34,688 nucleotides of DNA from Bacteriovoracaceae bacterium. Lineage in GTDB: Bacteria > Bdellovibrionota > Bacteriovoracia > Bacteriovoracales > Bacteriovoracaceae. The number at the start of each line of letters is the position of its first letter. The stretch's first letter is position 1. The notes under the pieces were generated by a model. The model was not told the origin of the DNA. It did not search any database and was given only the letters and a program-made list of their open reading frames with translations. A program made the translations under genes and the position numbers. The stretch covers positions 1-34,688 of the forward strand of contig JBMYPC010000014.1 in the NCBI GenBank assembly GCA_049599895.1. Reading direction: 5' to 3'. Below, piece by piece: positions 8,171 through 32,016 of the stretch.

Positions 8171-9040
8171 ATGTTTAAAAAAGTCGCAATTGTGGGCGGT
8201 ACCCACGGAAATGAATATACCGGAGTCTATCTTGTTAAGCATCTCGAGAAACATCCTGAGAAGCTTAATAAGTTTTCCTATGAAATCCAAACCTATATTG
8301 GAAACCCAGAAGCTTACAAAGCGAATAAAAGGTTCTTAGAAGAAGATCTCAATCGGTCTTTTGTGGATAAGAACTTAAAGGATCAACCAGAGAGTCTTGA
8401 GGGCAAGCGCGCCCGAGAAATGCAAGAGATTCTAAGGGATAAGGAAGCCGTGGACTTTCTTATTGATCTTCATACAACAACTTCAAACATGGGAAAGACA
8501 GTGGTTCTTTCAAAGACGGATGTTCTGACTCATGCCTGTTGCCAATATTTAAGCGAAAAGATGCCAGATATTAAGATTATTGATGATGAGCGGGTCAATG
8601 AGGAGTCTTATTTTGTGAATAAGATTGCCCCTGCTGGAATTTTGATTGAGGTTGGGCCAACTCCCCAGGGTGTGTTAAGAGCTGATGCTTATAATGGAAC
8701 AAGCGAGATCCTTGATCATATTCTAGATTTCCTTGAGCTTGTTAAAATTGGAAAGCTTGAGCTTAAGGAATCGATTTGCGAATATGATTTTGAGCGCTAC
8801 AAAGAGCTCGAGACAATTGAATATCCTGTGGATGAAAACGGTGAGCTTGCGGGTATCATCCATTCTGAGCTCCAAGATAAGGACTTCGAACTCATTAAAT
8901 CTGGAGATCCTCTGTTTCAGCTTTTTAGTGGAGAAGTTATTCGCTATGATGGTGAGCCTTTCTACCCAATATTCGTAAACGAGGGTGCCTACTATCCAAA
9001 GAAGCTTGCCTTCACCAAGACCATAATCAAAAAAGACTAA
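8171..9040 (+). CDS. Aspartoacylase (AstE/AspA family Zn deacylase)
   Basis: GGTHGNE, DLNRSF, DLHTTTSNMG, IEVGP and FVNEGAYY motifs. Confidence 0.92.
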   Translation: MFKKVAIVGGTHGNEYTGVYLVKHLEKHPEKLNKFSYEIQTYIGNPEAYKANKRFLEEDLNRSFVDKNLKDQPESLEGKRAREMQEILRDKEAVDFLIDLHTTTSNMGKTVVLSKTDVLTHACCQYLSEKMPDIKIIDDERVNEESYFVNKIAPAGILIEVGPTPQGVLRADAYNGTSEILDHILDFLELVKIGKLELKESICEYDFERYKELETIEYPVDENGELAGIIHSELQDKDFELIKSGDPLFQLFSGEVIRYDGEPFYPIFVNEGAYYPKKLAFTKTIIKKD

Positions 9041-9049
9041 TTTTCACTT

Positions 9050-9075
9050 CTGAAACAACATTTGAAACAACATTC
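9050..9075. promoter_or_regulatory. Tandem repeat TGAAACAACATT x2, putative activator sites upstream of P2
   Basis: ctgaaacaacatttgaaacaacattc; matches the motif upstream of P1. Confidence 0.5.
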
Positions 9076-9127
9076 TCCTTCAAAAACGAAAAAGTCTCGT
9101 AACTATTCAATTTCCTGTCCTCAAACT

Positions 9128-9143
9128 TGGTCACCCCCATGCA
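9128..9143 (+). promoter_or_regulatory. Sigma-54 (-24/-12) promoter P2
   Basis: TGGTCACCCCCATGCA: GG at 9129-30 and GC at 9141-42 (GG-N10-GC). Confidence 0.6.
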
Positions 9144-9185
9144 TAACTCCCCACCATGCATTGAAACTCAAAAAGGGGAGAAAAA

Positions 9186-9269
9186 ATGAAACAAGTTCAA
9201 ATCGCTGCATTCATCGCCGTCTCATTCGGCTTTCCACTGGCCATCATCTCAATCGCTTTTGCCAGCTAA
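9186..9269 (+). CDS. 27-aa hydrophobic small protein MKQVQIAAFIAVSFGFPLAIISIAFAS
   Basis: Not in the ORF track; strong GGGGAG RBS directly upstream; single TM-like helix; first ORF after P2. Confidence 0.7.
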   Translation: MKQVQIAAFIAVSFGFPLAIISIAFAS

Positions 9270-9287
9270 CAATTCGGGGGTTTTGTT

Positions 9288-9527
9288 ATGTCAAAAGCTA
9301 CAAGGTGGCCCAGACTCGATATGGGCCACCATATTTCAAAAAATACCAACAAAGCAAAGTTGAACCTCATCACAGGCGCAGCTTTCGTAAACCTACTACT
9401 CGTGATGAGCCTTTATCTCACGAACGGATTCACTGAGCTTGCAGGCTTTGCTTTTATTGTTTCGATTTCGACGATTCTGATTGTGATTGCGAGGAGGGGG
9501 CTTTGTTTTAGGAGGGTGGTCGCATGA
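9288..9527 (+). CDS. 79-aa small membrane protein (two TM helices); its 3' half is duplicated at 16044
   Basis: GGGGG RBS; hydrophobic segments; the duplicated 3' end keeps the RRGLCF translation. Confidence 0.7.
   Translation: MSKATRWPRLDMGHHISKNTNKAKLNLITGAAFVNLLLVMSLYLTNGFTELAGFAFIVSISTILIVIARRGLCFRRVVA
9398..9499 (+). repeat. 102-bp direct repeat, copy 1 (left border of the halogenase cassette)
   Basis: Identical to 16044-16145 by direct comparison. Confidence 0.97.
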
Positions 9528-9627
9528 AGGTTGTTGGTTTTTTTTACAGGGGTGTAATTAATCCTCCGAGGCAAATAGAGACAAAAGTCATATGTTAAAA
9601 TTAAAATGAAAAAATAGGAGATTAAAC

Positions 9628-11067
9628 TTGAATTTTGATGCAATCGTAATCGGTGGGGGGCCTGCAGGCACAAGTGCAGCAACTTTACTAAAAAAAAATG
9701 GATTGAGAACTCTTTTATTGGAAAAAGAAGTATCAACTCCATATAAAGTTGGAGAGTCATTACTTCCCTCAGCTTTAGCATTTTTTGATATTTTAGGAGT
9801 TCGAGAGAAAGTTGAAAGTCATGGGTTTACCAAGAAGAATGGTGCATTTCTGAGATGGGGAAGAGACCCTGAGCCATGGAGTATAAACTTTGGCGAGTTA
9901 AGTGGAAATGAAACTTATAGCTACCAAGTCGTTCGTTCTGAATTTGATGAACTTTTATTGTCTCATGCAGAATCTGTAGGAGTTGAAGTCATACGGGGCG
10001 CTATGGTTAATGATGTTTCTTTTAGCGACAAAGGCATTAAAGCAATTACTTATGTGCAATCAGGAAGAGAGTATTCGGTAGAGGTGAATTATTTAATCGA
10101 TGCAACGGGGCAAAGAGGTTTATTATCTAATAGATATTTAAACTCCAGAGTACAAAATGAATCATTTCAAAATATTGCGATCTGGTCTTATTGGGAGGAG
10201 TATGAACCACTGCCAGGAGATGCTTCTGGAAATATAATAACAGCGGCATTTCGGGACGGATGGATCTGGGGAATACCTCTCCATGATGGGAGGTTGAGTG
10301 TTGGTGTTGTTCAGCATAAAGACCTATTTATGGAAAAGAGGACAAGGTCATCCATTGAAGAAATTTATGAAACTGCAATAAGTTGTTGTAAGGTCGTTTC
10401 GAGTCGTCTCGTAAATGCTCGTCAATGCGATCGGATTAGAACTGCAAAAGATTATTCTTATAAATCCAATGTTCTGGCAAGAGATAACTATTTTCTTGCT
10501 GGTGATGCTGCTTGTTTTCTAGATCCCGTTTTGTCCTCTGGTGTTCACCTCGCGATGCTGTCTGGAACCTTAGCCGCATGCTCGATAACAGGAATCTTGA
10601 ATAATGTTGTATCCGCCAAAGAGGCCATTGATTTTTATTCTAGTACTTATTCAAGTGCATATCTAAGATTTATGCATTTTTTAAGTGCGTTCTACAATCA
10701 AAACGATGATCAGAATTCATACTTTTGGAAAGCTCAGAGTATAGCTTCTAGTGATTCAATTAACCAGGATTTAAAGTCCGCATTTTTGAATCTCGTAACC
10801 GGTGTTAAAGATCTCGATGAAGTAGAGCTTCACTCTCGAATTAATAAGTTTATGAAAAATAAAGTAAATGAAAACTTAAATTGGAGAAAACAGAAAAAAA
10901 GCCTTAAAAATTTTTCGAATGCTTTGGAAAGAAAAAGACTTAAAGAAAACGAAGACATTTTTAATCTAATTGAAGGCTTTGATCCTAGTAAAATCAAAGA
11001 TGAGCGACTTGGTATTTCTATGAAATTCCTGGATGGTAAACTTTCACTTTTCAAAGGTTTTGCATAA
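9628..11067 (+). CDS. Flavin-dependent halogenase (phenolic/tyrosine type)
   Basis: GGGPAG, KVGESL (catalytic Lys), WIWGIP (WxWxIP) and GDAACFLDPVLSSGVHLA motifs; TTG start after GGAG. Confidence 0.92.
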   Translation: MNFDAIVIGGGPAGTSAATLLKKNGLRTLLLEKEVSTPYKVGESLLPSALAFFDILGVREKVESHGFTKKNGAFLRWGRDPEPWSINFGELSGNETYSYQVVRSEFDELLLSHAESVGVEVIRGAMVNDVSFSDKGIKAITYVQSGREYSVEVNYLIDATGQRGLLSNRYLNSRVQNESFQNIAIWSYWEEYEPLPGDASGNIITAAFRDGWIWGIPLHDGRLSVGVVQHKDLFMEKRTRSSIEEIYETAISCCKVVSSRLVNARQCDRIRTAKDYSYKSNVLARDNYFLAGDAACFLDPVLSSGVHLAMLSGTLAACSITGILNNVVSAKEAIDFYSSTYSSAYLRFMHFLSAFYNQNDDQNSYFWKAQSIASSDSINQDLKSAFLNLVTGVKDLDEVELHSRINKFMKNKVNENLNWRKQKKSLKNFSNALERKRLKENEDIFNLIEGFDPSKIKDERLGISMKFLDGKLSLFKGFA

Positions 11068-11085
11068 TTATTATTTGGAGGAAAT

Positions 11086-11973
11086 ATTAGCAACACGGGA
11101 CACTGGTATGCATTCATAGCCTTTTTTAGCTGGGGGATCTTACCTTTATATTGGAAAAGTATTGATTTTCTAGAAGCAGATGTAATTCTTGCTTATCGTA
11201 TAATTTTGTCTGCCATATCGATGTGCCTTTTTTATTTGTTGATTAAAAAAGGCAGAATGATTTTCGATATCCATCAAGTGTTAAAACATTTCCTTCCCTC
11301 TTTCTTTCTAGCGTCGAATTGGTTGATTTTTATTTATGCTGTGAATGAAGGACATCTTTTGGAGGTTGGATTAGGGTATTATCTCGCTCCAATCCTCAGT
11401 TGTGGAGTTGGGTTATTCCTATTTCATGAAAAAGTTAATTTGTTTAAGGGTCTTGCTATCTTTCTCGCGTGTGTAGGTGTTTTTTACTACTCTTTTTCTA
11501 TTGGTAGATTTCCAACCCTAGCAGTTTCTCTCGCTGTGACTTTTGTCCTTTATGGTGCTTCAAAAAAAATGGTAAAAACAAACCCTACAGAATCTTTGCT
11601 CTATGAATCTCTTGCGCTATTCCCCATTGCTCTTGCTTATGCTTTCCTTAAAGAGAAAAATATCAGTATGGTTGAATTGACATGGTCACAGGAAACCTTA
11701 GTTGCGATATCTGGTATTGTTACAGTTGTTCCTTTGATTTGGTTTTCTAGGGCGGCAAAACTATTGGAGTTCAATGTTCTTGGCTTTTTTCAATATATTG
11801 GGCCGACTACAAATTTTTTCTTAGCTTTATTTGTATTTAAAGAGAATTGCTCATCTGAGAAAATGGTAACTTTCATATTTGTTTGGTCGGCAGTTCTTAT
11901 TTTTATTTTTAGTCACAAACTTTCTTTTAGACTCGATGAATGGCGTAGTAACTTTCTCGAAAAAGTGAGCTGA
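11086..11973 (+). CDS. rarD: RarD-like EamA/DMT transporter (probable ATT start at 11086)
   Basis: The frame upstream of the track start gives ISNTGHWYAFIAFFSWGILPLYWK; NWLIFIYAVN, LGYY and GFFQYIGPT are RarD motifs. Confidence 0.85.
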   Translation: MSNTGHWYAFIAFFSWGILPLYWKSIDFLEADVILAYRIILSAISMCLFYLLIKKGRMIFDIHQVLKHFLPSFFLASNWLIFIYAVNEGHLLEVGLGYYLAPILSCGVGLFLFHEKVNLFKGLAIFLACVGVFYYSFSIGRFPTLAVSLAVTFVLYGASKKMVKTNPTESLLYESLALFPIALAYAFLKEKNISMVELTWSQETLVAISGIVTVVPLIWFSRAAKLLEFNVLGFFQYIGPTTNFFLALFVFKENCSSEKMVTFIFVWSAVLIFIFSHKLSFRLDEWRSNFLEKVS

Positions 11974-11975
11974 CG

Positions 11976-12962
11976 ATGAAAGAATCTGACATTCTAGTAA
12001 AGAAAATTTATGGTTACTATATTACACAATGTATAGGAGTGGCGGCTGAACTGGGTTTAGCTGATATACTTGGAGATAAAACACTTTCCGTTAAAGAGCT
12101 TGCTTCTGAAAGTATTGTAAATGAGGATGCGCTATATAGGATGCTAAGGTTGCTTTGTTCTGAGGATATTTTTGTCGAGGTGAAGGATAGGCATTTTTCA
12201 AATTCAAATATTTCGAAATATCTCAAGAAAGATCATGAAACAAGTTTAAATGGTCTTGCAAGGCTTCATTGTGACAAGCTTTGGTGGAACTCTTGGGGAG
12301 AACTTAGATTTTCGATTAAAGAGAACAAGCCTTCAACAGATTTTGTATTCAAGAAAGGTGCATTTCAGGTTATGAAGGAAAACAAGGAGATAAATGATAT
12401 TTTTAATTTTGCAATGACAAACTTATCTTCTCGTGATGCTCGCGCAGTAACAAAGGTGTTTGATTTTACGAAGTTTAAAAATGTAATTGATATTGGAGGT
12501 GGAGAAGGAGCTTTAATAAATGGAATTAAGAACCAACTAAGTGGGTTTAAGATAGACTTTGCTCTATTTGATCAAGGGCATGTCATAAAAAAAGTAACAT
12601 TAACTGATATTAATCTTGAGTTTGGCGACTTCTTTCAATCAGTACCTAAAGGTTATGACTGCTATATATTGAGACATATCTTGCATGACTGGAGTGATGA
12701 ACGTTGTGAAACAATTCTAAAAAATTGCGTAGAGGGAATGAAGCCAAACTCTACTTTATTGGTGATAGAACTCCTTTTAGAGAAAGGGAAGGAGTCGAGC
12801 ATTGCGAAGTACCGTGATATGAATATGTTGGTATCAATGCATGGAGGGAAGGAAAGATATATTAGCGAATATGAAAAATTGTTTTTGAGTGCAGGAGTAA
12901 AGTTAGTTGAAGTAATACCGCTCCCTGGTCAAATGAACATTCTTGTTGGAAAACGTTTATGA
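11976..12962 (+). CDS. SAM-dependent O-methyltransferase (methyltransf_2 with dimerisation domain)
   Basis: AAELGLAD dimerisation region; DIGGGEG, GDFF, ILHDWSD and GKER motifs. Confidence 0.93.
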   Translation: MKESDILVKKIYGYYITQCIGVAAELGLADILGDKTLSVKELASESIVNEDALYRMLRLLCSEDIFVEVKDRHFSNSNISKYLKKDHETSLNGLARLHCDKLWWNSWGELRFSIKENKPSTDFVFKKGAFQVMKENKEINDIFNFAMTNLSSRDARAVTKVFDFTKFKNVIDIGGGEGALINGIKNQLSGFKIDFALFDQGHVIKKVTLTDINLEFGDFFQSVPKGYDCYILRHILHDWSDERCETILKNCVEGMKPNSTLLVIELLLEKGKESSIAKYRDMNMLVSMHGGKERYISEYEKLFLSAGVKLVEVIPLPGQMNILVGKRL

Positions 12963-14059
12963 GATTAATTATTTATACTTTCCTTATTTTTTCTTGCTTC
13001 ATTAACAGGCTCAACTCCGCAACAATTGGCTATGGATATTCTTATGTGATGACTGATAGACAAGAGTTTGTATATATGGGTTTCCTAATGGGGCTAAAGC
13101 AACATTTAAATCGCCCCTTGGGGGAGAACTCTCTATTTTTAAAAAAGTCTACCGCTAAGAATATGATGAAACCATTTCATATCGCTATGGAACTTCAAAA
13201 AAATGCCGATCCTTTCATCGTTGGGTTCGCAACTAGTCACGAGGCCTTAATGGCAGCGAAAGCCATTAAGGGAAAGAAGAAGATCTTTATTTCAGCAGTT
13301 GCTAAAAGTTCAGAGCTTTCTAAATTTGGAGAAAATGTCTTTAGCATTAATAGTTCAAATGAAGATACAACTCTTGTCGCATTGAATTTAGTTAAAAAGA
13401 AACTAAATCTAAATAATGGAATAATGATTACTAATCCACACAATGCTTTCAGTAGTAACTTGGATTCACTATACCGAAAGGAGCTAAAAGCACTTGAAGG
13501 ATTAAATGTTCAGACACTGTTTACAGATCAAATGGGTAATGTCGATATCAAACAACTTAAATATATTGTGGAGCAAGGGGCTCAGTTTATTATTGTTAAC
13601 ACTTATATCAGGAGAAGTTTTGGTATTTTAGAGGGATTGAGAAAAATCAATAAAAATTTGCCATTAATTACAAATAGTTCATGGGTTATTGATGACATAG
13701 AGGAGGTGAAAAGACTTGTAACAGATAAATCACTCGATATTTATAGCTTTGAAGTTATTGATAGAACAACCAAAGAGTACTCACATCTAAGCAAGTTGGC
13801 TAAGTCTGAATATGGAACAACTCCTGTTCCTCACATGGTATATGGCTATGATTTAGGTGTCGTTGTTGCAGACTTAATTAACCGAACAAAAGGAAAACTT
13901 AGCTATGAAAATATCTTAATGGAAATTAAAAAAAATAGCTGTTTTAAAATGACAAGCTCTGGAGGCTTGTGTCTGCCAAAAGAGGGAGGAAATGCAATTC
14001 GTGAGGTTTTTATCGTAAAATTCTCTAAGGGGAAAGGCTTCATTAAGGTCTCTGAATGA
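12959..14059 (+). CDS. Periplasmic binding protein, LivJ/branched-chain amino acid type; no permease nearby
   Basis: Signal peptide; FIVGFATS, IFIS-A-SSEL-NVFS and YGYD motifs; overlaps the kinase start. Confidence 0.75.
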   Translation: MRLIIYTFLIFSCFINRLNSATIGYGYSYVMTDRQEFVYMGFLMGLKQHLNRPLGENSLFLKKSTAKNMMKPFHIAMELQKNADPFIVGFATSHEALMAAKAIKGKKKIFISAVAKSSELSKFGENVFSINSSNEDTTLVALNLVKKKLNLNNGIMITNPHNAFSSNLDSLYRKELKALEGLNVQTLFTDQMGNVDIKQLKYIVEQGAQFIIVNTYIRRSFGILEGLRKINKNLPLITNSSWVIDDIEEVKRLVTDKSLDIYSFEVIDRTTKEYSHLSKLAKSEYGTTPVPHMVYGYDLGVVVADLINRTKGKLSYENILMEIKKNSCFKMTSSGGLCLPKEGGNAIREVFIVKFSKGKGFIKVSE

Positions 14060-16026
14060 AATCTAGAAGCATTCTGAAAAAGATTCTTGTTTTACAGTAT
14101 TCTACAATGTTTGTAATTGCAACAATCGCCTTTCTTTTAAACTTGTTCGCATTAACAAAAAGATCTGAGGGGCAAATCAAAACAGTTCTTTTAGAATTAA
14201 AGGAGTCAATCTCTGTTAAGAAAGAAGAACTTCAGTCGTATGATTTACTTGGGTTGAACGATGCGATTTTGATGACAATTAAAGAGATCGAGCTTCAGGG
14301 GAATAGTAGCCCTTTAATGGTTTTGTCTAAAGAGGAGATAAAGCAAGGGGAACATGTTGTGCTTGAATTAAGTCAAAATAAAGTTATTGCGACTGATTTA
14401 TCTAACCTGGAGTTCTCTGTTTGGGGATATTTAACCAATGAATTAACTGTAATTATTTTCGCAACAACCTTAGTGTTTTTTATTATTAGTGCTTTTACTT
14501 ACAGAATCTTAAAGAAAGACATACTGAATCCAATAAAAGAAGCTATAAAACTGATGCATGTTGCACAGTTCTCTGGACTGGATAAAGTTACTGCTCATGG
14601 AGAGATTCGTTTTCTTCTTGATAATATTAAAAATTATCACCGCTCAGCCTTGGCAAAAGAAAGTGAGAAGCAAATGTTCGACATGGCAAAGAAGGTTGCC
14701 CATGATATTCGTTCACCTGCTGCAGTTCTCGATATTGCTGTAGCTGAAACGAGTGGTATAGACCCTGCCCAAAAAAGAGTTTTGAGAGAGTCTGTTTTAC
14801 GAATACAAGATATTGCAAATAATTTACTAGAGAATAATCGTAAGTTCGAAAGCAACAACATCAATGAAGCAATTCTTGTTCTGCCACTAATTAACAAAAT
14901 TATTAGTGAAAAACGGTTACAGTTTAGAAGTAATTCAAACGTGAATATTCATGTTCTTGTTAAGAAGAACTCATACTTTGCTCATGCAGAGATAAATCCC
15001 AATGAGCTTAAGCGTGTCATATCTAACATTGTTAACAATTCTGTTGAAGCCATAGGAAAAGATTTAGGAGAAGTCTGTATCTGTCTTGAACAGACTGAGA
15101 AACAAGTTAAAGTTCAAGTGATTGACAATGGTCCAGGAATTCATCGTTCAGTTGTAGAGGCTGTAAATCACAAAAAACCCATTAGTTATGGAAAGTCAAA
15201 TGGAAATGGACTTGGCCTATTATCCGCCAAATCGTTTGTTGAGCATATGGGTGGAAGTTTTAATTTAAACTTAAATTCAGAGGGAGGAACGACAGTTGAA
15301 ATGGTATTCCTTAGAGGTAGACCTCCATTGGGTTATGTCTCGTCTTTAAAAATTGCTCAAGATTATTGCCTTGTCTTTTTGGATGATGAAAAATCGATTC
15401 ATGAGATGTGGAAAGAAAAGTTTAAAAATATAAAAAACAAAAAAATTCACATATATAGCTCTTCTGAGCTTAGGTCCTTCGTAAAGGATTATAAAGGAAA
15501 GTTCATATTATTTAGCGATTTTGATTTAAATTCCGAATGTAATGAGTCTGGCCTTGATTTAATCTCAGAATTAGAATTAGAGAATGATTCAATTTTAGTA
15601 ACGTCATACTATGATGATCCCGAGATTCGTGAGCGATCGAGGAATGCAGGAGTTTCTATTGTTCCTAAAGCACTTGCTTTGCATCTGCCAATTGAAACAC
15701 AAAATGACCTTAAAACTGTTGTTCATATTGACGATGATCTACTGGTCAGAAACATATGGAAGGCAGGACTAGAAAAGAAAGGTATTAAATATGTCTCCTT
15801 TGACTCACCAAATGAGTTATTAGGTAGTTTACAGAGTTTGTCAAAGGATTGGAGTTTTTATATCGATTATGACTTGTCTAGTGAGATAAGTGGTGTGGAG
15901 TTGTCAGAGGTTCTTTTTAGCAAAGGTTTTAAGAATCTTTATCTCTCAACCGGCTTTGAAGCCTCGGAGTTTCATAATGTTTCTTATCTTAAGGGGGTTG
16001 TTGGAAAAGAATTACCTGTGCACTAA
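14056..16026 (+). CDS. Hybrid sensor histidine kinase A (TM-HisKA-HATPase-REC-REC)
   Basis: KVAHDIRSP, SNIVNNSVEA, DNGPGI and GNGLGL motifs; two receiver domains (LDDE..SDF..TS..K; IDDD..ID..STG..K). Confidence 0.93.
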   Translation: MKSRSILKKILVLQYSTMFVIATIAFLLNLFALTKRSEGQIKTVLLELKESISVKKEELQSYDLLGLNDAILMTIKEIELQGNSSPLMVLSKEEIKQGEHVVLELSQNKVIATDLSNLEFSVWGYLTNELTVIIFATTLVFFIISAFTYRILKKDILNPIKEAIKLMHVAQFSGLDKVTAHGEIRFLLDNIKNYHRSALAKESEKQMFDMAKKVAHDIRSPAAVLDIAVAETSGIDPAQKRVLRESVLRIQDIANNLLENNRKFESNNINEAILVLPLINKIISEKRLQFRSNSNVNIHVLVKKNSYFAHAEINPNELKRVISNIVNNSVEAIGKDLGEVCICLEQTEKQVKVQVIDNGPGIHRSVVEAVNHKKPISYGKSNGNGLGLLSAKSFVEHMGGSFNLNLNSEGGTTVEMVFLRGRPPLGYVSSLKIAQDYCLVFLDDEKSIHEMWKEKFKNIKNKKIHIYSSSELRSFVKDYKGKFILFSDFDLNSECNESGLDLISELELENDSILVTSYYDDPEIRERSRNAGVSIVPKALALHLPIETQNDLKTVVHIDDDLLVRNIWKAGLEKKGIKYVSFDSPNELLGSLQSLSKDWSFYIDYDLSSEISGVELSEVLFSKGFKNLYLSTGFEASEFHNVSYLKGVVGKELPVH

Positions 16027-16043: not shown

Positions 16044-16145
16044 ACTCGTGATGAGCCTTTATCTCACGAACGGATTCACTGAGCTTGCAGGCTTTGCTTT
16101 TATTGTTTCGATTTCGACGATTCTGATTGTGATTGCGAGGAGGGG
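16044..16145 (+). repeat. 102-bp direct repeat, copy 2 (orphan 3' end of the 79-aa gene; right border of the cassette)
   Basis: Identical to 9398-9499; starts 17 nt after the kinase stop; the frame continues RRGLCFKGCFLSC-stop. Confidence 0.97.
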
Positions 16146-16189
16146 ATTGTGTTTTAAGGGATGTTTTCTTTCGTGTTAAGATTAGAGTT

Positions 16190-16795
16190 ATGAAGATATT
16201 AAATATCCTAGAAACAACTTTAGAGGCTGAAGGGGAAACCTACTTCTTTAGAAAGGGCAAAAGAGAAGATATTCCAAAAGCTACGGAATGCATAAATCTT
16301 GCATACGATATGTGGCTCGAAGATGGCTTCAAGCAAAGAGATAAGACAGAGGATGAAGTCTCAAAATATTTTCAGAAAGATGGATACATTTTAGAGAACA
16401 AGGACCATGAAATCATTTCTGTTGGATGCGTCAGTAAAGTGTATCCCATTTTTGAAGACAAAAAGATTACTCTTCAATGTTCTCACCAATGTTACTCGGC
16501 TGGCCTTAACGAACTTGGAGAAAAACTATCTCTGCAAAGTGATACCTCAGGACTTTTCTTTTATGGGCTTGCGGTCTTACCAAAGTATGCGAAAAAAGGA
16601 ATTGGAGAAGTTTTTTTGCGAAAAGGTTTCGATGTTGCTAGAGAAATGAAAGTTTCTTTTTGTTATCTTGAAACTGGTCTTGAGACTTGGTTGGTGGATT
16701 GGTATCGACGCTTTGGGTTTGAAGTAGTTGGGAGCGAGAGAGTTGAGGGGATTGGGAAGAGTACGGTTGTGATGGTTCAGAAATTTGAAAATTAA
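16190..16795 (+). CDS. GNAT family N-acetyltransferase
   Basis: LAVLPKYAKKGIG (motif A) and LVDWYRRFGFE; the track start at 16133 lies inside the repeat, so ATG 16190 is preferred. Confidence 0.88.
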   Translation: MKILNILETTLEAEGETYFFRKGKREDIPKATECINLAYDMWLEDGFKQRDKTEDEVSKYFQKDGYILENKDHEIISVGCVSKVYPIFEDKKITLQCSHQCYSAGLNELGEKLSLQSDTSGLFFYGLAVLPKYAKKGIGEVFLRKGFDVAREMKVSFCYLETGLETWLVDWYRRFGFEVVGSERVEGIGKSTVVMVQKFEN

Positions 16796-16816
16796 CCTAC
16801 TGATAGAGAGTTACAT

Positions 16817-17134
16817 ATGGAAAGCATAATTAGTATTTACAGAATTAAAAACAGTGGAAAGAAGCATGTTGAGGATTTAGTCCAAACTCTAACAGAAAGG
16901 TTTGAGGATTCTTTAGAAACATTGGATGAAGCTGGAGTAAAAATTGAAAGCATTTTCATAAAAAATGATCGATTATATACCTACAAACTTGTTAGAAATA
17001 TAGAAGAGATGAGGAAAATTCAAAAGAGCTCAAATAAAGCAATTCATTCAATCATTAGGCCAATTGTTCAAGAATATCTAGAGTTTGAAGAAGAGATAAT
17101 TGCAGAAATAAACTTTATTGTTTCTTCTTTATAA
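16817..17134 (+). CDS. Small hypothetical protein (DUF6176-like, dimeric alpha/beta barrel)
   Basis: ETL-EAGVKIESIF pattern; 105 aa; GAGAG RBS. Confidence 0.6.
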   Translation: MESIISIYRIKNSGKKHVEDLVQTLTERFEDSLETLDEAGVKIESIFIKNDRLYTYKLVRNIEEMRKIQKSSNKAIHSIIRPIVQEYLEFEEEIIAEINFIVSSL

Positions 17135-18410
17135 CCCCAGGATAATACTTCTCAAAGAAAACAGAAGTCTCTTTAGGATCAGCTCTTAAGAATGTCTTTA
17201 TATGTGGAATCAAAAGAAGTCCTGGAACAAGTAACAGAACCCCTGTGCCCATCATTTGTAAGGTGACTTTGGTATTATAAGATTCAATTATCAATCCAGC
17301 CAAAGCAATTCCAATAGGTTTTATACCTCTTGTAAAAAACTGCAAACTCGAAAAAATTCTAGAACGATAATGATCTGGAATTGATAGTGCCATTTGAGTT
17401 TTTATAGGAATATTTGTAATCGAGCATCCAATACCGAAGATTAATAAGAGAAATGGTAAAATATAAGAGTTCGATATCAAGGAAAAGAGAATAAATGATG
17501 ATGAGATAAGGAGTGTACCAAGTATTAATACTCCGTCAGCTTTAATTTTACGACAAAGGTATCCAATAAATAACCCGCCCAGAATTGCACCGATTCCTTG
17601 GCCAGCCTGTGTAAGCCCATATACCCAAGAATCATGATTAAGGTCAGACTTTATTAAAACAGGGAGAACTATAACGAGTGGCGAGATAGAAAAATTAATA
17701 AACATCGCAACTAAACTTAACCCAAATAGAGTCGGAAGTTTAAAGAGAACTCTCAGTCCATCAATAATTTCTTCTGCGAATGAGGAAATTTTAAAACTTT
17801 TCAAGACAGGCTTCTTAGACGCACTAGAGGTTGTCTTGACTTTCATAAAAGCAGCTAAGAGAGATGCAATAAAAAATGTTGATGCATCTAAAATAAAAGC
17901 CTCTCCGACACCAAGAAAGGCAACAATTAAACCCCCTGTAGCGCTTCCAATGATTGCTCCTAGGGAAGTGATAATTTGAGAGTGTCTCATTGCGTGAAAA
18001 AGATGTTTATCTGCAACTAATTGAGGAACAATGCTATTTTCAATACTAAGGAATAAAGCTGAGCCAATGCCATACAAAATAAAGATAATTATCACCAGCG
18101 GTAGATAGAAGATGTCCATAAAGACCATTATGCTAATAATAACAATGAGTGATCCTCTCCATATGTCACTAATAATGGCAATCCCTTTACGTGAAAACCG
18201 ATCACCTAATGGTCCAAGAATGGGTAAGAGAGCGTAATTGAAAAATGACAAAGGTGCAATAATAGAAGACATAACTGTCGCGGAACCTGTTTTCTCTAAA
18301 ATCCACCAGGCAATAGCAATTGTGTTTATGGAATCGCCGGCTCCTGAAATGAACTGACCAATTCTAAAAAGCCAGAAGCTTTTTCCAAGGGTTTTGATTT
18401 GGTTTAGCAT
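17115..18410 (-). CDS. MFS transporter (EntS/macrolide-efflux-like, about 12 TM)
   Basis: GQFISGAGD, GPLGDRFSRK and IPDHYRSRIFS motifs; ATG 18410 avoids overlap with the kinase (track start 18452). Confidence 0.9.
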   Translation of the reverse strand: MLNQIKTLGKSFWLFRIGQFISGAGDSINTIAIAWWILEKTGSATVMSSIIAPLSFFNYALLPILGPLGDRFSRKGIAIISDIWRGSLIVIISIMVFMDIFYLPLVIIIFILYGIGSALFLSIENSIVPQLVADKHLFHAMRHSQIITSLGAIIGSATGGLIVAFLGVGEAFILDASTFFIASLLAAFMKVKTTSSASKKPVLKSFKISSFAEEIIDGLRVLFKLPTLFGLSLVAMFINFSISPLVIVLPVLIKSDLNHDSWVYGLTQAGQGIGAILGGLFIGYLCRKIKADGVLILGTLLISSSFILFSLISNSYILPFLLLIFGIGCSITNIPIKTQMALSIPDHYRSRIFSSLQFFTRGIKPIGIALAGLIIESYNTKVTLQMMGTGVLLLVPGLLLIPHIKTFLRADPKETSVFFEKYYPGVIKKKQ

Positions 18411-18423
18411 AACTAAGGCCTTT

Positions 18424-20478
18424 TTAAGATTCCCAGGGAGGGGTTTTGCCAATGACCTTCTTTATAAATGGAGAATCTTTTAACTCCTTATCGATATGTC
18501 CTGTCGATAGTATTATGTGATGGTACCCTTTTCGAAAAAGCTGCTCCGCGATCTCAAGGCCTCTCGTATCATCACCAAGTTCCTGGTCGATATAGAAGAT
18601 ACTATCAAAAGGAATAGTCGAAAGTTTTGGTTCAAGCTCTTGAAAACGGGAGAAGCTTAAGAGATTGATGCTTTGTTTTTTTGCTTGAGCTTTCCATGTT
18701 AGTATGACTAGAGGATCATCATCTAAGTGGACTATAAGCTTATTTTTATGATTACTCAGGGGAACACTTTTCACGGAAACATCCATAATCATATTTTTGG
18801 GAATCATCTTCAATCCCATTTCTATACACTTTTTTTGAATTTCTTCGTCTTCAAAGTGGGATGTTACTAGGACTGATTTCTTTGCAACTTGAAACTTCTG
18901 AATAAGGTCAAGTCCTGATTCATTAAATCCATTTAATTCGAAATCTGAAAGGAGAAGGAAATTGTCAGATGTCAAGCTTAAGACTTTTTCAAGTTCTTCG
19001 GGGGTGGAAATATGTACTTTTTTATTTGAAATTGACTTAAGTTTTTCAGCCCAAACTTTATGAATCGTATTCTCGTCATCGAGAATAATGACTTGAGTAT
19101 CATTGTCTAACTTTAGAGACGAAATAAACCACTTGGGTGGAAGTGCTAAAGGCAATTGTATTCTTATAGAAGTGCCCCATTTTGGGCTTGAGTTGATAGT
19201 TAGCTTACCAGAAATAGAGTTAATGTATTGGCTTGCTGAAGATAAGCCGATACCATTTCCCATAGGTTTACCATAAGTTATTTCTTTACCCTCTTTGATT
19301 TTTGTTAAAACATCATATGGTATGCCATGACCATTATCTTGAACCTCAATAACTGCCCAAGGGGATTCTGAGTATGCTTTAATTTCAATTTGTCCGTCTT
19401 TTCCGGAGATAGCTTCTGCTGAATTGTTTATAATGTTAGAGAGGACTCTTTTAAATTCGATTGGATCTAGTTTTGCAAACAGATTGTAAGAATCTTTTTC
19501 TTGGTGCAATGAAATCGTTAGGTTTAGAAAGTTTCGAAATTGAATTCTTTTTTCTGTTAACAAGCTTTCAATAAGAGGTTTTAAAGCGACGGTTCCGTTT
19601 GTTTGGGGATGAGGCCTTTCATTTTCCAAAAGGTTGTTTGCGATATCTTGTATTCTTGTTGTTGCTTCGATTATGAGAGTTTTTTTATCTGATGTAATGC
19701 CTTCCAAATCTTTTGATACCATCTCTAGTGCCGATACTGGAGAGCGAATGTCATGAGCTACACGTTTCGCTATTGTAGTTAAAGCTTTATCTTCAGTTAT
19801 TTTGATGAGGTCCTTTTTGTAATGGTCAATTCTTTTTATTGCAGAGTCAAAACCATTGAATATCGAACTAACTTCAGAGTAAGAGGTATGATCTTTAAGC
19901 TTATATAAGTCGATGACTTCAATATCTGATTTTTCAAGGGTCTCAGCAAGATAAGTAATTGATTTTGAGACGTTCTTTCCGATCATCCTTATGAGCAGGA
20001 CTTGAACAATGGATAATATAATTAGCGAAAGAAATAATAAACTGATTATTTTTAATATAGCACTTTGGAAGAAACTTAGAGAGTAGGCAATTTCTATTCT
20101 CGCTGCAATGTTCTCTTTGTTTTCATCGAAGAAGATTTTAGATGAAATTCTGAATATATTGTCTGTGTCACCTGTTTTTGAGAAATTGCATATTATAGTA
20201 CCATCCTCTCTTAGGATGTTTACTAAAAGAATGTCGCTATCTTGAAAAACGGCTTTGCATTTTCTGTAAACTTCGCTGTCCCTCCCAATTAACACATCAT
20301 TTAAAACACTTTCTTGAAAAAGGTTGTGAAAGTTTTGAAGTTGAGATCTGAAATGAGATTGAATCTGATTGTTGAGTATTAAATAACAAAGTAATGAAAA
20401 AAGAATGAATACCAAAATGTTCACAAGGTAAGTTGGAATTAGGAATGCTTGCCGGATACTAAGCTTTTTAATTTTCAA
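18424..20478 (-). CDS. Hybrid sensor histidine kinase B (paralog of kinase A)
   Basis: RVAHDIRSP, SNIINNSAEA, DNGHGI and GNGIGL motifs; two REC domains; probable TTG start 20478 after AAGGAAG (track start 20523). Confidence 0.93.
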   Translation of the reverse strand: MKIKKLSIRQAFLIPTYLVNILVFILFSLLCYLILNNQIQSHFRSQLQNFHNLFQESVLNDVLIGRDSEVYRKCKAVFQDSDILLVNILREDGTIICNFSKTGDTDNIFRISSKIFFDENKENIAARIEIAYSLSFFQSAILKIISLLFLSLIILSIVQVLLIRMIGKNVSKSITYLAETLEKSDIEVIDLYKLKDHTSYSEVSSIFNGFDSAIKRIDHYKKDLIKITEDKALTTIAKRVAHDIRSPVSALEMVSKDLEGITSDKKTLIIEATTRIQDIANNLLENERPHPQTNGTVALKPLIESLLTEKRIQFRNFLNLTISLHQEKDSYNLFAKLDPIEFKRVLSNIINNSAEAISGKDGQIEIKAYSESPWAVIEVQDNGHGIPYDVLTKIKEGKEITYGKPMGNGIGLSSASQYINSISGKLTINSSPKWGTSIRIQLPLALPPKWFISSLKLDNDTQVIILDDENTIHKVWAEKLKSISNKKVHISTPEELEKVLSLTSDNFLLLSDFELNGFNESGLDLIQKFQVAKKSVLVTSHFEDEEIQKKCIEMGLKMIPKNMIMDVSVKSVPLSNHKNKLIVHLDDDPLVILTWKAQAKKQSINLLSFSRFQELEPKLSTIPFDSIFYIDQELGDDTRGLEIAEQLFRKGYHHIILSTGHIDKELKDSPFIKKVIGKTPPWES

Positions 20479-22003
20479 CTTCCTTTTTAGTAGACCACAA
20501 TATTTTCCATAATTCACTTTCATATCGAAAATTCGTTTCAGGAATTGTTATTGCTTTTCTATGTATAACAGGAACGTTTATTCGATAAAGAGGGATAATA
20601 AACCATTGATCTTCAAATTCTCTAAACGCTGAGGAGTAAAGGTTAAGTCTCATTGACTGATCAGTGGTAAATCGAATGTCGTTGATCTTTTCAAAAAAAT
20701 GATTGTTAGGAAAAACTCCATATCTTAGTGGCGATGTTGGTTTTATAATGTCAATAAAGCCATCAGGGTCGGGGAAGTTCCCAAAGTATCGACCACCTAT
20801 AATATCATAGTTGTTATTAGCCATATGCTTTACTAGTGTGTTTGGGGTCGCTTTTATCAAATTGATTTCAGCCCCAAGTTTATGAAAAATTTCTGTGATA
20901 GAATCAAAGAAAGAGTCAGTGAAAACGCTCTTCATCAATACGATGTTGATTTTCTTATGGCTGAGGGATCGACCCCACCTCTTTTTTACCTCATTAATTG
21001 ATGTGACGTACTTTTCTCTTTTATAGTATTTTAATGGCATCACTCCTTTTGGAAGAAAAGTGGGGGAGATTTCGTGCAGAAACGACTTATTGCTAGAGAA
21101 TCTTGCTTCTTGCATTATTAAGGAGGCAATATCTTTGCGAATTTCTTTTTTCAAGAACAGTTTTGAGGTGGCGTTGAAGTACATGTGAGCGATCGCTAAA
21201 GAGCGAGATTTTGTGATCAAGGTGTTTTTGGGGAGGGAGAGATTTTCCAATTCAGACAAAGGTAGTCCGAGAGCAATATCTAACAGACCTTTTTTGAATA
21301 GTTGAAATGCTTTTCTTGTTGTTTCAATAGACCTAACTGATATTGAATTCAGTTCTGGCAAGTTGCCTTTATAAAGTTCATTTTTATTGAATTCCCACCG
21401 CTTTGATTTTGAGTTGAAGTTGTTTGTCATTGGTCCTGAGAAACGATGATCTTCCTTTGATAAAATAGCAAAACCAGGCATAGATAGAACATGTAAAAAA
21501 GGGGGGTATGGTTTGATTAGTTTAATACTTAATTTTGTAGGAGAAAGAACTTGAATAGATTTGTGAATTTTACCCTTTTTAATGGTTTTATCTTCTGCAA
21601 GTAATGGTTTTAGATAACCAGCGACCATAGAGTTATGCCAGAAGTGTCTAGAAATACTGATTGCGACATCTTTAGCTGTCACTCTTTTTTTTAGATGATG
21701 AAAGAAGGCATCTTTTACGATTTCGAACTCGTAGACTGAGCCATTTTCTTTAATCTTCCATTTCTTCGCGAGATCTCCAACAATTGTACCTTTTTCAGAG
21801 ATTCGAACAAGTGTTTGGCTGGTGCATTGAAGTAGTAAAAAGTGTTCCATAAAGGCAAGTTTTGTGGGATCTAACGTTTTTGGTAGATGGGTGATTCCAA
21901 CTTCAAGCATAGAGTTTTCTTTTCTGAGGTTAACTTTTTCAAGTGCCTGAAGAGAAGTGAAACCAAAAAGTACAAACATAATGATAAAATTATAGAAGCT
22001 CAT
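20468..22003 (-). CDS. Family-5 (OppA/DppA-like) peptide-binding protein; no permease nearby
   Basis: Signal peptide; TLDP, TLVR, GDLAKKW, VTAKDV and IIPLY motifs. Confidence 0.88.
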   Translation of the reverse strand: MSFYNFIIMFVLFGFTSLQALEKVNLRKENSMLEVGITHLPKTLDPTKLAFMEHFLLLQCTSQTLVRISEKGTIVGDLAKKWKIKENGSVYEFEIVKDAFFHHLKKRVTAKDVAISISRHFWHNSMVAGYLKPLLAEDKTIKKGKIHKSIQVLSPTKLSIKLIKPYPPFLHVLSMPGFAILSKEDHRFSGPMTNNFNSKSKRWEFNKNELYKGNLPELNSISVRSIETTRKAFQLFKKGLLDIALGLPLSELENLSLPKNTLITKSRSLAIAHMYFNATSKLFLKKEIRKDIASLIMQEARFSSNKSFLHEISPTFLPKGVMPLKYYKREKYVTSINEVKKRWGRSLSHKKINIVLMKSVFTDSFFDSITEIFHKLGAEINLIKATPNTLVKHMANNNYDIIGGRYFGNFPDPDGFIDIIKPTSPLRYGVFPNNHFFEKINDIRFTTDQSMRLNLYSSAFREFEDQWFIIPLYRINVPVIHRKAITIPETNFRYESELWKILWSTKKEVEN

Positions 22004-23152
22004 TATAATATCTTTTTTCCTAGAGGATTCTTATTATTATATGTGGTTATTAGGATATCTCTATCCAGATAAACCTTAGTAGCTTTATACTTAGAAGAGG
22101 ATAAATAGCTTAATGCTTTAGAAGGAATCAATGACAGGAGTTGAATTACCCCATGAGATCTAAGTTTTGCAAGTCTTTCAACTCGAGATGTGTTGCAAGT
22201 GAAAAAAGTATCTTTCTTAAAGTTTTCTGGAAATATAAGTGACAAATTGCTTATGTCTGAAACTTCTTTCTTAGTTTTGAAATCTGGTGTTTCAAATTGA
22301 TAAACTTTTTTATCTCTTAAAAAACGAAAAAAAATAGGGAATATCTCCTCGAGACAGTTGTTCAACCTCAAAAGGCATAAATGTTGAAAAGTTATTGTTA
22401 AGAACTGCATCTCTATAGCTCTTTGTTTCTCGAATAATTACCCTAATTGGACAATTCTCAATATCTTGAAGGCTGTTTAAAGTTTGGTATATCTGCAATT
22501 CATAATCATTTAAAGTTTCAATACTTGATACGTAACCATGAGTCATTGCACATACAGCCTCAGTAGTGAAATCTAAGTCTGAAATTTCGTTGAGGCACTG
22601 AAGCCCGAAATTATTAAAGGTTTTTTGGGAGTCGGGGATCAAGCGTGTTTGAGACGGTAAGATGTAATCATTGAAAATCGATTCTATATCGAGAGGAAAA
22701 ACTACTAATGAATCTTTTGAGTTTGAAATAATAATATTTTCAAGGTGAAGGTCTCCAATTCCGAACCACGACAACAAAGCAACGATAGCGCCGAGGGATT
22801 CGTATTGGCTTAAAGGAACATCAGTAGAAAAAGTAGATTCGAGAGGTAAATATGTTAATGACCCTGAATAGATTTCATCCCCTGAGAAGGTGACTTCCAA
22901 ATCTGGGATAGATTGAAATGGAGAGGTTTTATTAGAATTTTTAAATATTTCGTTTATGTAGATTCGAAGTGGGCTTTTACCAGAAAGAAAAAGATATTCC
23001 CAGAAAACTGATCTCGGCTTTAAAATTTGATCAGGTCCTTGTCTAGTTACTTGGCGACCGAAGTTGTGACGGTCGCCAAAAGTTTTTTGCAAATTGTTAG
23101 GCAGCTTAGATTGTATCAACTCCAACAACCTCTTCTTTTTCAACTTCTTCAA
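22003..23152 (-). pseudogene. Stand-alone LanM-type dehydratase domain (DUF4135), split by a 1-nt frameshift (or sequencing error) at A8 22327-22334
   Basis: GDRHNFGRQV, LKPRS, GIGDLHLENII, PLDIESIF, RVIIRETKSY and QLSRGDIPYFF motifs; removing one base joins ORF 22003..22410. No LanC cyclase domain. Confidence 0.82.
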
Positions 23153-29949: not shown

Positions 29950-30144
29950 AGGTGTCTCCAAAGTCCAAATTAATTCTTTTTAGCGGCTGTGACATGCTGC
30001 GCAAAGAAAACATAGTGATTTCGAAAGGTTATGTAAGAATTACATGTCAAAACTATTGACGGTCTCTTATAGTTTCAAACCGAAATTACGAGAGCACGCC
30101 AAATCAATACCAAAAATCAAGGATCAAATCTTTGAAGCGAAGAA

Positions 30145-30207
30145 GTACGTGGTTACCTTTGGGACCACGTGCATCCAACGCGACAAGTCCCACAAGTAAC
30201 CACGTAC
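30145..30207. repeat. REP-like long palindrome
   Basis: GTACGTGGTTAC (30145-56) and GTAACCACGTAC (30196-207) form a perfect 12-bp inverted repeat with inner TGGGAC/GTCCCA arms. Confidence 0.8.
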
Positions 30208-30214
30208 CTATTTT

Positions 30215-30321
30215 CAATTCATAGAGGTCTTGATAACCGTAATAAGATTTCTAAAGAATTGGGCCTAAGTTATTCAAATGTTTGGTCTGTTTTCAATGAT
30301 TTTAAGTTAGTTGAGAAATTT
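30215..30321 (+). pseudogene. 3' fragment of a paralog of gene 32549..33202
   Basis: IHRGLDNRNKISKELGLSYSNVWSVFNDFKLVEKF versus IHRGLDNPNKISKDLGLSYSNVCSVFKDFKLVKQF (33075-33181). Confidence 0.88.
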
Positions 30322-30511
30322 GTGATCAAAAATAAATCAGAGGCGTGCCAGAGGCCCAACTAACGATACATATCTCTTTTAACTGCTTGAAACTGCGACC
30401 TTTCTTTCTTGAGACTTAAACTGTCTATCCAGTTGATTTCACGGAGAATTGATCCACACTCTAAAACATGATATAATTTACATGATTTATTAATCATGTT
30501 TTGGAGAACAA

Positions 30512-30970
30512 GTGCCGATACCTAGATTAGAAGCTAACGGAGAACTACCAGAAGGTATCTATGATGCAACAATAGAAGAAGTTAGAAAAGCCTTTGGGCA
30601 ATCCTCTGATAGAAGGAAATTGTTAATGGGAGGGCTTGAAAGGGCCATAGACCAGTTTCAGAAAGTTAATGTGAGTGCGATCTATTTAGATGGGAGCTTC
30701 ACTACAGATAAGAACAAGCCTAATGATATTGATGGCTGCTGGAGTTCAATAGGCGTAGATGAGAGCAAGCTGCACTTGTTGGATAATGATTTTTGGAAAT
30801 TTAATTCTGCCAAAGATGCACAAGTAGGTAGGGATAATATAAAGAAAAAGTTTGGATTAGATTTTTTTATAGCTGAAGAAATTGAAGGTGCTTCGGGAAA
30901 ACCTTTTCCTGAGTTCTTTCAAACAAATAGAGATGGATTTAAAAAAGGTATTATTCGCATCAATTTATAA
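30512..30970 (+). CDS. DUF6932-like nucleotidyltransferase-fold protein
   Basis: GELPEGIY, YLDGSFTTDKNKPNDID and C-terminal KGIIRI motifs. Confidence 0.82.
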   Translation: MPIPRLEANGELPEGIYDATIEEVRKAFGQSSDRRKLLMGGLERAIDQFQKVNVSAIYLDGSFTTDKNKPNDIDGCWSSIGVDESKLHLLDNDFWKFNSAKDAQVGRDNIKKKFGLDFFIAEEIEGASGKPFPEFFQTNRDGFKKGIIRINL

Positions 30971-30982
30971 GAGAGGTGTTTT

Positions 30983-31411: not shown

Positions 31412-31479
31412 GGGGATAAAAATTTAAATAAACACAAGTTTGAAGCTGAAATATTTTTCCAAAAATACGGATCAATAAA

Positions 31480-31949: not shown

Positions 31950-32016
31950 CAAGTCTAAAATTAAAAAGGTTGCCAAAAGGGTAGTGAGGTATCATATATT
32001 ATGATATCATATATAC

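Follow-up and report, generated by a model that had tools for sequence, protein, structure and literature searches.

Several bacterial sensor kinases are coupled to a substrate-binding protein (SBP) that is encoded next to the membrane kinase and presents its ligand to the periplasmic domain, and one of these SBP-dependent systems, LuxPQ, reads a self-made autoinducer (excerpted account in PMC8050422). The layout of a binding protein beside a kinase is found in LuxP-LuxQ (autoinducer AI-2, Vibrio), TorT-TorS, XylFII-LytS and HptA-HptS, of which LuxQ and TorS are hybrid kinases, and it is also found in a five-gene unit of a Bacteriovoracaceae bacterium (assembly GCA_049599895.1), here called cassette A. 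The unit occupies 9628-16026 on the plus strand of contig JBMYPC010000014.1, positions 1 to 34,688; this whole stretch of 34,688 nucleotides (nt) was analysed and is referred to as the window. Cassette A encodes a flavin-dependent halogenase, a RarD-type transporter, an O-methyltransferase (OMT) dependent on S-adenosylmethionine (SAM), an SBP and a hybrid histidine kinase, so arranged that enzymes predicted to make a signal are encoded together with its predicted receptor, and likewise in the sister cassettes. We give about an even chance to the reading that the unit makes and exports a halo-methoxy aromatic compound, probably derived from tyrosine, which is sensed by the unit’s own receptor pair. 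Coupling of the tailoring enzymes, exporter, SBP and kinase is supported by the pairing of SBP and kinase in 22 of 24 related loci, by the enzymes and transporters that recur at those loci, and by a model of the SBP-kinase complex.

The receptor pair of the window differs from the described pairs in several respects. LuxP belongs to Peripla_BP_4, whereas the window SBP is a divergent member of the Peripla_BP_6/LivJ type. The periplasmic part of the window kinase is about 95 amino acids long and of uncertain fold, whereas LuxQ and TorS have dCache-like or four-helix-bundle domains. The luxS gene lies outside the luxPQ operon, whereas the enzymes and exporter of the window share a putative operon with the receptor. 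No sequence relation is detectable between LuxPQ-type systems and the window pair. Unlike the LivJ-type SBPs that are coupled to ATP-binding cassette (ABC) transporters, the window pair is not adjoined by an ABC importer.

Methylated and halogenated signals are known from other systems. In Ralstonia, the genes phcB and phcS share one locus. PhcB is a SAM-dependent methyltransferase that makes the signal methyl 3-hydroxymyristate, and this signal is read by the kinase PhcS (excerpts of PMC8578825, PMC11960443). The Phc signal is a fatty-acid methyl ester, and the excerpted accounts describe no binding protein for it (PMC8578825, PMC11960443). The Phc system also has no halogenase and no dedicated exporter, and its methyltransferase is of a class unlike the window OMT. 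In Dictyostelium, the flavin halogenase ChlA and the O-methyltransferase DmtA finish the chlorinated diffusible signal DIF-1; a halogenase and an O-methyltransferase for a phenolic ring are thus common to that route and to the one predicted here. The DIF-1 system, however, is eukaryotic, builds its polyketide scaffold with a polyketide synthase (PKS) and has no clustered receptor, whereas the genome of the window contains one PP-binding domain only. The 3-chloro-O-methyl-tyrosine unit of cryptophycin is made by the halogenase CrpH and an O-methyltransferase. Here the same tailoring pair acts on a tyrosine ring, but the unit is a building block within a product of nonribosomal peptide synthetase (NRPS) and PKS, whereas a free, exported molecule is proposed for the window. 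No description of the cassette family, or of a halogenated autoinducer with its receptor, was found in the full-text literature searched, in which subscription journals are largely absent.

Organisation and enzymes of the unit

The first-pass annotation had named five genes in an abutting or overlapping array. This is borne out by family models, which find the halogenase, EamA transporter, OMT, SBP and hybrid kinase in the same places:

9628-11067, plus strand: flavin-dependent halogenase, phenol/CndH-CmlS type, 479 amino acids
11086-11973, plus strand: RarD-type EamA transporter of the drug/metabolite transporter (DMT) class, presumed exporter, 295 amino acids if started at ATT 11086
11976-12962, plus strand: SAM-dependent OMT of the COMT-like small-molecule class (Methyltransf_2), 328 amino acids
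12959-14059, plus strand: secreted type I (LivJ-fold) SBP, presumed ligand-binding half of the receptor, 366 amino acids
14056-16026, plus strand: hybrid histidine kinase with two receiver-like domains, 656 amino acids

The halogenase gene ends with TAA at 11065-11067, and the next base already belongs to the open RarD frame. The open reading frame (ORF) listed for the transporter begins at TTG 11206 and is without the first helix; no in-frame ATG, GTG or TTG occurs between the halogenase stop and this position. Read from TTG 11206, the protein scores 143.6 bits against the RarD model TIGR00688, which is matched from position 61, and read from ATT 11086 it scores 171.5 bits (cut-off 130.15) over profile positions 3-255. 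The ATT shares the reading frame of the halogenase gene and comes 19 nt downstream of its stop codon; GGAGGA precedes it at 11077-11082. The RarD gene therefore appears to start at the non-canonical ATT 11086. A hydropathy script finds seven transmembrane-like segments in the transporter. Further downstream, the RarD stop at 11973 is followed by the OMT ATG at 11976, and both the OMT/SBP junction (12959-12962) and the SBP/kinase junction (14056-14059) are ATGA overlaps. This spacing suggests that the five genes are co-transcribed. Pattern scans for sigma-70 promoters (22 matches against 32.8 expected from shuffled sequence) and terminators (4 against 7.0) were uninformative, a sigma-54 pattern gave 11 matches against 11.8 expected with none upstream of the operon, and Rfam gave 0 matches within the window. 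The GC content of the cassette is 35.3% against 37.7 +/- 1.4% for the genome (5th percentile), too weak a deviation for the cassette to be called foreign.

The halogenase is matched by PF04820 at 152.4 bits (cut-off 21). Its closest solved relatives by comparison with the sequences of the PDB are CndH (3e1t, 9.1e-77) and CmlS (3i3l, 2.3e-74), followed by the unnamed halogenase 8zop (1.5e-65) and fungal RadH (3.5e-57); pyrrolyl-carrier halogenases match at about 1e-41 and tryptophan halogenases only at about 1e-8. The expected motifs are intact, i.e. GGGPAG at 9-14, E43, K70, GWIWGIP at 211-217 (WxWxIP) and GDAACFLDP at 292-300. K70 is invariant in 20 of 20 aligned relatives and is aligned with the second lysine of the ‘VKKP’ stretch of CmlS, which we take to be the catalytic lysine of that enzyme. 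The FAD, lysine and WxWxIP motifs are common to the window halogenase and to CndH, CmlS and RadH/DklH, its best sequence matches, but CndH and CmlS are encoded within large PKS/NRPS-type clusters whereas the window halogenase is encoded beside a sensor. DklH, which is CndH-like, halogenates free flavonoids ortho to a hydroxyl group (excerpt of PMC8539768). The window protein falls into an orphan clade of proteins of about 490 amino acids (1623 matches at E<=1e-30), which has a conserved C-terminal extension (R420, E449, L472) and occurs mainly in Chloroflexota, cyanobacteria, Acidobacteriota and actinomycetes. It is encoded by the single halogenase gene of the whole genome.

It had also been noted at first pass that PKS, NRPS, carrier protein and flavin reductase are all missing. 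For the window this holds, and no PKS, NRPS or ABC transporter was found among its gene families; genome-wide it does not, since the 97%-complete genome contains one carrier-protein (PP-binding) match, in a frame of 75 amino acids, and two flavin reductase genes (PF01613) on contigs C59 and C24, none of them within the cassette. A carrier-tethered substrate is unlikely because the genome has this single PP-binding domain and the window has no PKS or NRPS, and the gene content makes a free substrate likely for the halogenase. With two reductases encoded elsewhere, a supply of FADH2 in trans is plausible.

The OMT is matched by PF00891 (132.4 bits, 1.8e-38) and by the dimerisation domain PF08100 (40.2 bits). 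It has the SAM-binding motif DIGGGEG at 172-178 and the motif LHDWSD at 236-241, whose histidine is presumably the catalytic base. Taken together, the types of the halogenase and the OMT point to halogenation of a phenol in the ortho position followed by O-methylation. The nearest solved structure to the OMT is 6c5b (2.2e-48), followed by AlpH, CalO6, MmcR and plant phenol OMTs; 6c5b is the structure of LaPhzM (excerpt of PMC10477347).

The putative receptor pair and its relatives

The SBP has an N-terminal hydrophobic, signal-like helix at 2-18, and its AlphaFold (AF2) model (mean confidence, pLDDT, 94.3) shows the two-lobe LivJ/LivK fold. Foldseek aligns the model to leucine-binding and 4-hydroxybenzoate-binding SBPs with TM-scores of 0.72-0.76 at 12-16% identity, and vanillate binders are also among the structural neighbours. 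A search of the SBP profile against PDB sequences gave one match only, at E 0.93. The kinase has transmembrane segments at 9-31 and 125-152 that flank the short periplasmic stretch, an H box at 215-221 with H216, a HATPase_c domain, and two receiver-like domains in which the acidic, threonine and lysine positions are kept. Its nearest named homologues come from metagenome-assembled genomes labelled Deltaproteobacteria, Elusimicrobia, Bdellovibrionota, Oligoflexia, Halobacteriovoraceae, Gammaproteobacteria and Neisseriaceae. Seven histidine phosphotransfer (Hpt) domains are encoded in the genome, all on contigs other than that of the window.

A complex was modelled from SBP residues 21-366 (with an alignment of 64 rows) and kinase residues 30-132 (with one of 9 rows). 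Scores of 0.68, 0.62 and 0.00 (median 0.62) were obtained in three runs, against 0.00 for each of the three controls. Between runs, at least 33% of contacts agree, and the pLDDT of a partner falls to 44 in one run. In calibration, 116 of 157 solved complexes attained this mark, as did 2 of 215 mismatched pairs; these figures are approximate for self-made alignments. The modelled interface is formed by the family-invariant TSHEAL helix and the NPxxxFS loop of the SBP and by a conserved LGL stretch of the kinase (residues 57-74). Docking of the SBP on the periplasmic loop of the kinase is thus supported by the model, not shown. The predicted contact would explain the conservation of TSHEAL and NPxxxFS across cassettes with different enzymes. 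Other positions vary from clade to clade; thus the family positions H, D/E and H are replaced by K/S, R/K and N/T in the window SBP and in P0122, a relative described below.

The halogenase was initially considered as the conserved anchor of the cassette and was set aside, there being no conserved cassette across 80 loci of its relatives; the SBP was used as the anchor instead. A word-indexed search of 5.8 billion proteins returned, besides the window SBP itself, P0122 (50%) as its only relative. A profile search of 1.84 billion representatives showed the family to be small, the number of matches being 141 (E<=1e-3), 80 (E<=1e-10) or 44 (E<=1e-30) according to threshold. Two proteins of the representative library have additional domains: P0211 (792 amino acids) is a major facilitator superfamily (MFS) transporter fused to a family SBP, and P0263 (666 amino acids) matches the first 200 SBP positions and continues into kinase and receiver, which may reflect a genuine fusion or a frameshift in the gene call. 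A metagenome locus search with a 12-row SBP alignment added 6 loci. True members of the SBP family were found in 4 other genomes among the 237 searched in the window’s taxonomic family, and in 15 of 401 sampled genomes of the phylum, the window’s own included. One locus from the phylum (L142) is a duplicate of a metagenome locus (L101) and two metagenome loci end right after the SBP, which leaves 24 usable loci.

The homologous kinase that follows the SBP in 22 of these loci is directly downstream, a few bases from the SBP stop or overlapping it, and its homology extends from the N-terminus (from residue 6 of the window kinase on). The exceptions are L151, where the kinase is one gene further, and L157. 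At L157 (8093-10114, contig C11 of genome G402) the SBP is truncated to 247 amino acids and is followed by the integrase (rve) of an insertion sequence with no kinase after it; judged by its gene content, this locus looks like a decayed cassette.

The same-strand genes beside the pair encode small sets of anabolic-type enzymes, which vary from locus to locus; the sets at L150 and L134 come near to that of the window in their logic. Radical SAM and ATP-grasp proteins are encoded beside the SBP and kinase in L100, L101, L102, L133, L147 and L158, and ATP-grasp proteins also at L148 and L157. A thiamine pyrophosphate (TPP) enzyme is found at L135 and L136, cupin proteins at L143-L146 (with a class I/II aminotransferase in L143, L144 and L146), a pyridoxal phosphate enzyme at L151 and a histidine-methyltransferase-like protein at L099. 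At L150 (5077-10511, contig C4 of genome G284) overlapping genes on one strand encode an OMT, a biopterin-dependent aromatic amino-acid hydroxylase, a LysE transporter, the SBP and the kinase, and this locus is the clearest sister system for the idea of an aromatic amino-acid ligand. At L134 the SBP and kinase adjoin an OMT, an EamA transporter and a 2-oxoglutarate-Fe(II) oxygenase. This oxygenase is WelO5-like and was considered as a second halogenase; it carries His-Val-Asp, the hydroxylase form, and was rejected. A transporter or polytopic membrane protein is present in 16 of the 24 loci (EamA in 6, MFS in 1, LysE in 1, unannotated in 8), the eight unannotated proteins having 5-9 hydrophobic segments each. 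No ABC importer occurs in the window or among the flanking ORFs scanned at the related loci.

For a maximum-likelihood tree, 27 SBPs of the family were combined with 2 generic outgroups; the duplicate L142 and the broken L157 were omitted. The TPP pair, the cupin trio (L143-L145) and the ‘460-aa’ loci are each supported at 100/100, and L134 and L150 are paired at 95/81 despite coming from different families. The window SBP and P0122 stand alone on a long branch of 1.68, and the backbone is unresolved. By these groupings, SBP clades appear to follow the type of the linked enzyme. P0122 and P0002, the best match of the halogenase (57%), each come from a single contig of 9,541 nt, almost certainly one and the same, and are probably a second instance of halogenase with SBP. 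The halogenase version of the cassette is known from this organism only (two marine sequencing runs) and, probably, from this one other contig.

A proposed signalling loop and its rivals

We infer the substrate, the halide, the direction of transport, the identity of the ligand, autoregulation and the biological role from the predicted functions, and the loop would work as follows. The flavin halogenase would take FADH2 from a reductase encoded elsewhere and would chlorinate or brominate a free phenolic ring ortho to the hydroxyl, most likely that of tyrosine or a tyrosine-derived metabolite; bromide or chloride as the halide would suit a seawater setting. The OMT would cap the phenol after halogenation, and the RarD/EamA transporter would export the halogenated, methylated product. 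In the periplasm the SBP would bind the product and then dock on the short periplasmic loop of the hybrid kinase, altering the output of the kinase phosphorelay by way of Hpt and response-regulator proteins whose genes lie elsewhere. Since the receptor genes share an operon with the enzymes, such a loop would be autocrine or quorum-type. An aromatic scaffold derived from an amino acid is suggested by the LivJ fold of the SBP, by the families of the exporters and by the L150 cassette, and L150 as a sister cassette gives indirect support to an aromatic amino-acid-like ligand.

A wider proposal is possible but more tentative than the loop itself. The loci may belong to a modular ‘private language’ family in which a conserved LivJ-type SBP-kinase pair co-diversifies with interchangeable enzymes that tailor amino acids (radical SAM/ATP-grasp, TPP, cupin/aminotransferase, hydroxylase/OMT, halogenase/OMT), joined in two thirds of the loci by a small-molecule exporter. 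The signal of the window would be of the chlorinated or brominated O-methyl-tyrosine type, the first bacterial autoinducer to be both halogenated and served by a dedicated receptor, and the unit, with a 113-nt repeat at either end, may move as a block. If true, bacterial cell-cell signalling would gain one more chemical family, modular in build, in which modified amino acids are read via binding-protein-dependent kinases, and halogenation would be a new way of making a signal private. The cassette is small and each of its parts can be expressed alone, so the claim is open to direct testing, and a possible use of the receptor pair is as an orthogonal sensor. The SBP family also offers natural enzyme swaps for studying the co-evolution of synthase and receptor specificity.

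Several points count against a self-made signal with its own receptor. The earlier interpretation of the locus stands as regards gene calls and tight linkage, but it does not extend to the halogenase family elsewhere: among 80 loci around halogenase relatives of 36-48% identity, 0 have the SBP and 0 have RarD, while an OMT homologue is present in 4 and a weak kinase-like match in 2. No halogenase orthologue occurs in 40 sampled relatives of the organism, in which the best match is 30% identical. Among the 70 kinase matches listed, none comes from a 9,541-nt contig, so that the second instance may be one without a kinase or with a truncated kinase. The agreement of the SBP tree with enzyme type overstates the independence of the loci, as kin share labels. 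The SBP reaches 31.8 bits against Peripla_BP_6, barely at the cut-off of 31.7, and its modelled fold, at 12-16% identity to the structural neighbours, cannot separate amino acids from aromatic acids as ligands. As regards the complex, one of three runs scored 0.00, the kinase alignment has 9 rows and the calibration is approximate. The direction of transport by the RarD/EamA protein is assumed, and no response regulator or Hpt gene is found within the unit.

The strongest rival, which we consider rather unlikely, is a secondary-metabolite cassette. Its product would be an antibiotic or allelochemical, the transporter would serve for export and self-protection, and the SBP-kinase pair would turn production on in response to a different, external cue (prey, host or a nutrient). 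Bioactivity is frequent among halogenated methoxy-aromatics, an enzyme, an exporter and a regulator together are a common layout among biosynthetic clusters, and the habitat is marine according to the labels of the sequencing runs. Known SBP-dependent kinases mostly sense nutrients, e.g. trimethylamine N-oxide, xylose and chitin oligosaccharides (excerpt of PMC8050422). However, SBP clades track enzyme type across families, as expected of a receptor that reads the product rather than a common external cue, and the operon of the enzymes includes the receptor genes, joined to it by overlapping stop and start codons. If the product does prove to be an allelochemical, the locus remains a case, from an uncultured marine bacterium, of a rare halogenase that stands free and is linked to an explicit sensory input.

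The resemblance of the SBP to proteins that bind 4-hydroxybenzoate and vanillate would also suit a system that senses and modifies an external compound. The pair would then detect an exogenous phenolic compound or aromatic amino acid, the transporter would take it up or expel it, and the halogenase and OMT would detoxify or convert it (phenol to anisole). The O-methylation of halophenols is a known detoxification route, but halogenation is not a detoxifying step, no catabolic genes adjoin the cassette, and the sister cassettes are anabolic (ligases, radical SAM proteins, hydroxylases) and carry EamA, LysE or MFS transporters, families whose characterised members are exporters, including exporters of amino acids. 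This explanation is distinctly improbable.

Less credit still is due to mere adjacency, i.e. a generic SBP-kinase module that happens to lie beside three unrelated metabolic genes. The genome has four paralogous hybrid kinases, two others of which come after family 5 SBPs, and one of these, on contig C94, has no enzyme genes on its assembled side. Against this, stop and start codons overlap within cassette A, direct repeats enclose exactly its five genes, halogenase and SBP are probably together on a second contig, and enzymes recur beside the SBP family, accompanied by a transporter in the 16 loci given above; we regard simple adjacency as very unlikely. A ribosomal peptide (from the ORF at 9524-9598 or a repeat ORF, both described below) that is halogenated and O-methylated as a peptide signal has the slimmest prospect of all. 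In its favour, the halogenase gene is immediately preceded by a small ORF with a strong ribosome-binding site (AGGAGGG), and some flavin halogenases are known to act on ribosomal peptides. Against it, the fold of the SBP is that of LivJ and not that of the peptide-binding family 5 found in a neighbouring cassette, EamA/RarD transporters move small metabolites, and no gene for a protease, leader recognition or a cyclase is present.

Flanking repeats and neighbouring genes

The features that border cassette A are as follows:

9398-9510, plus strand: left copy of a 113-nt direct repeat, ending 117 nt before the halogenase start
9524-9598, plus strand: small ORF of 24 codons with AGGAGGG 7 nt upstream of its ATG, read and translated from the sequence
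16044-16156, plus strand: right copy of the 113-nt direct repeat, beginning 17 nt after the kinase stop

The two repeat copies, which bracket exactly the five genes, are 97% identical, with the first 102 nt the same and the differences at the 3' end. They may be a scar left when the five genes were inserted as a block. A blastn search of the 3.27-Mb assembly gave no third copy, and 200 other genomes of the family gave only two short partial matches (E 2e-4 and 9e-4). No flanking repeats bracket the cassettes at the 24 sister loci, and the five-gene unit contains no recombinase gene. RNA folding of both strands and both copies gave no structure signal (z -0.98 to +0.24). In run X1, the probable source of the assembly, the flanks, the cassette and the 102-nt repeat form unitigs of their own, with depths of 9.7 and 9.4 for the flanks, 8.9 for the cassette and 23.7 for the repeat. 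A second marine run from another study contains pieces of the flanks and the cassette at 99% or more. No joint indicating an empty site or a circular form of the cassette was found in the assembled unitigs of the runs.

Each repeat copy has a small ORF (9405-9527 and 16051-16179), some 40-42 codons long and hydrophobic in its core. The two are identical over 35 residues and then diverge, they have no clear ribosome-binding site, and tblastn found no further copy in the genome. The 24-codon ORF at 9524-9598, directly ahead of the halogenase, holds one tyrosine and has cysteine as its last residue. It may encode a leader or a precursor peptide or be meaningless, and its membership in the unit is uncertain. 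The spacer between the aspartoacylase gene and the halogenase gene contains an ORF of 124 amino acids at 9062-9436, which starts with TTG, has an odd basic composition and extends into the repeat; it has no family match and is probably not a gene.

Outside the repeats, an aspartoacylase-family deacylase (NF002601, 300 bits) is encoded at 8171-9040, and an aspartoacylase is also found near a generic LivJ-type SBP in two relatives (L137, L138). On the other flank, 16190-17134 encodes a GNAT acetyltransferase and a DUF6176 protein. Cassette B follows at 17115-23152 on the minus strand, convergent with cassette A. It contains a 280-amino-acid protein with a short LanM/DUF4135-like stretch, an ORF of 135 amino acids, an SBP of the peptide-type family 5, an MFS transporter and a hybrid kinase paralogous to that of cassette A. 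The layout is again one of making, exporting and sensing, but with a peptide-type SBP. The cassette B kinase is 39% identical to that of cassette A over residues 191-654. Two more paralogues of the hybrid kinase, on contigs C94 (L091, 8071-11509) and C220 (L092, 1551-3686), bring the number in the genome (G000) to four; the C94 kinase comes after a family 5 SBP and the C220 contig ends at the kinase start.

At the far end of the window, the region 30140-34600 encodes a DUF6932 protein, a DUF6036 nucleotidyltransferase and a C-terminal-only fragment of ImpB/MucB type (IMS_C and DUF4113), and looks mobile or defence-like. Two repeats lie in this region: a direct one of 107 nt, whose copies at 30215-30321 and 33075-33181 are 79% identical, and an inverted one of 26 nt (30140-30212).

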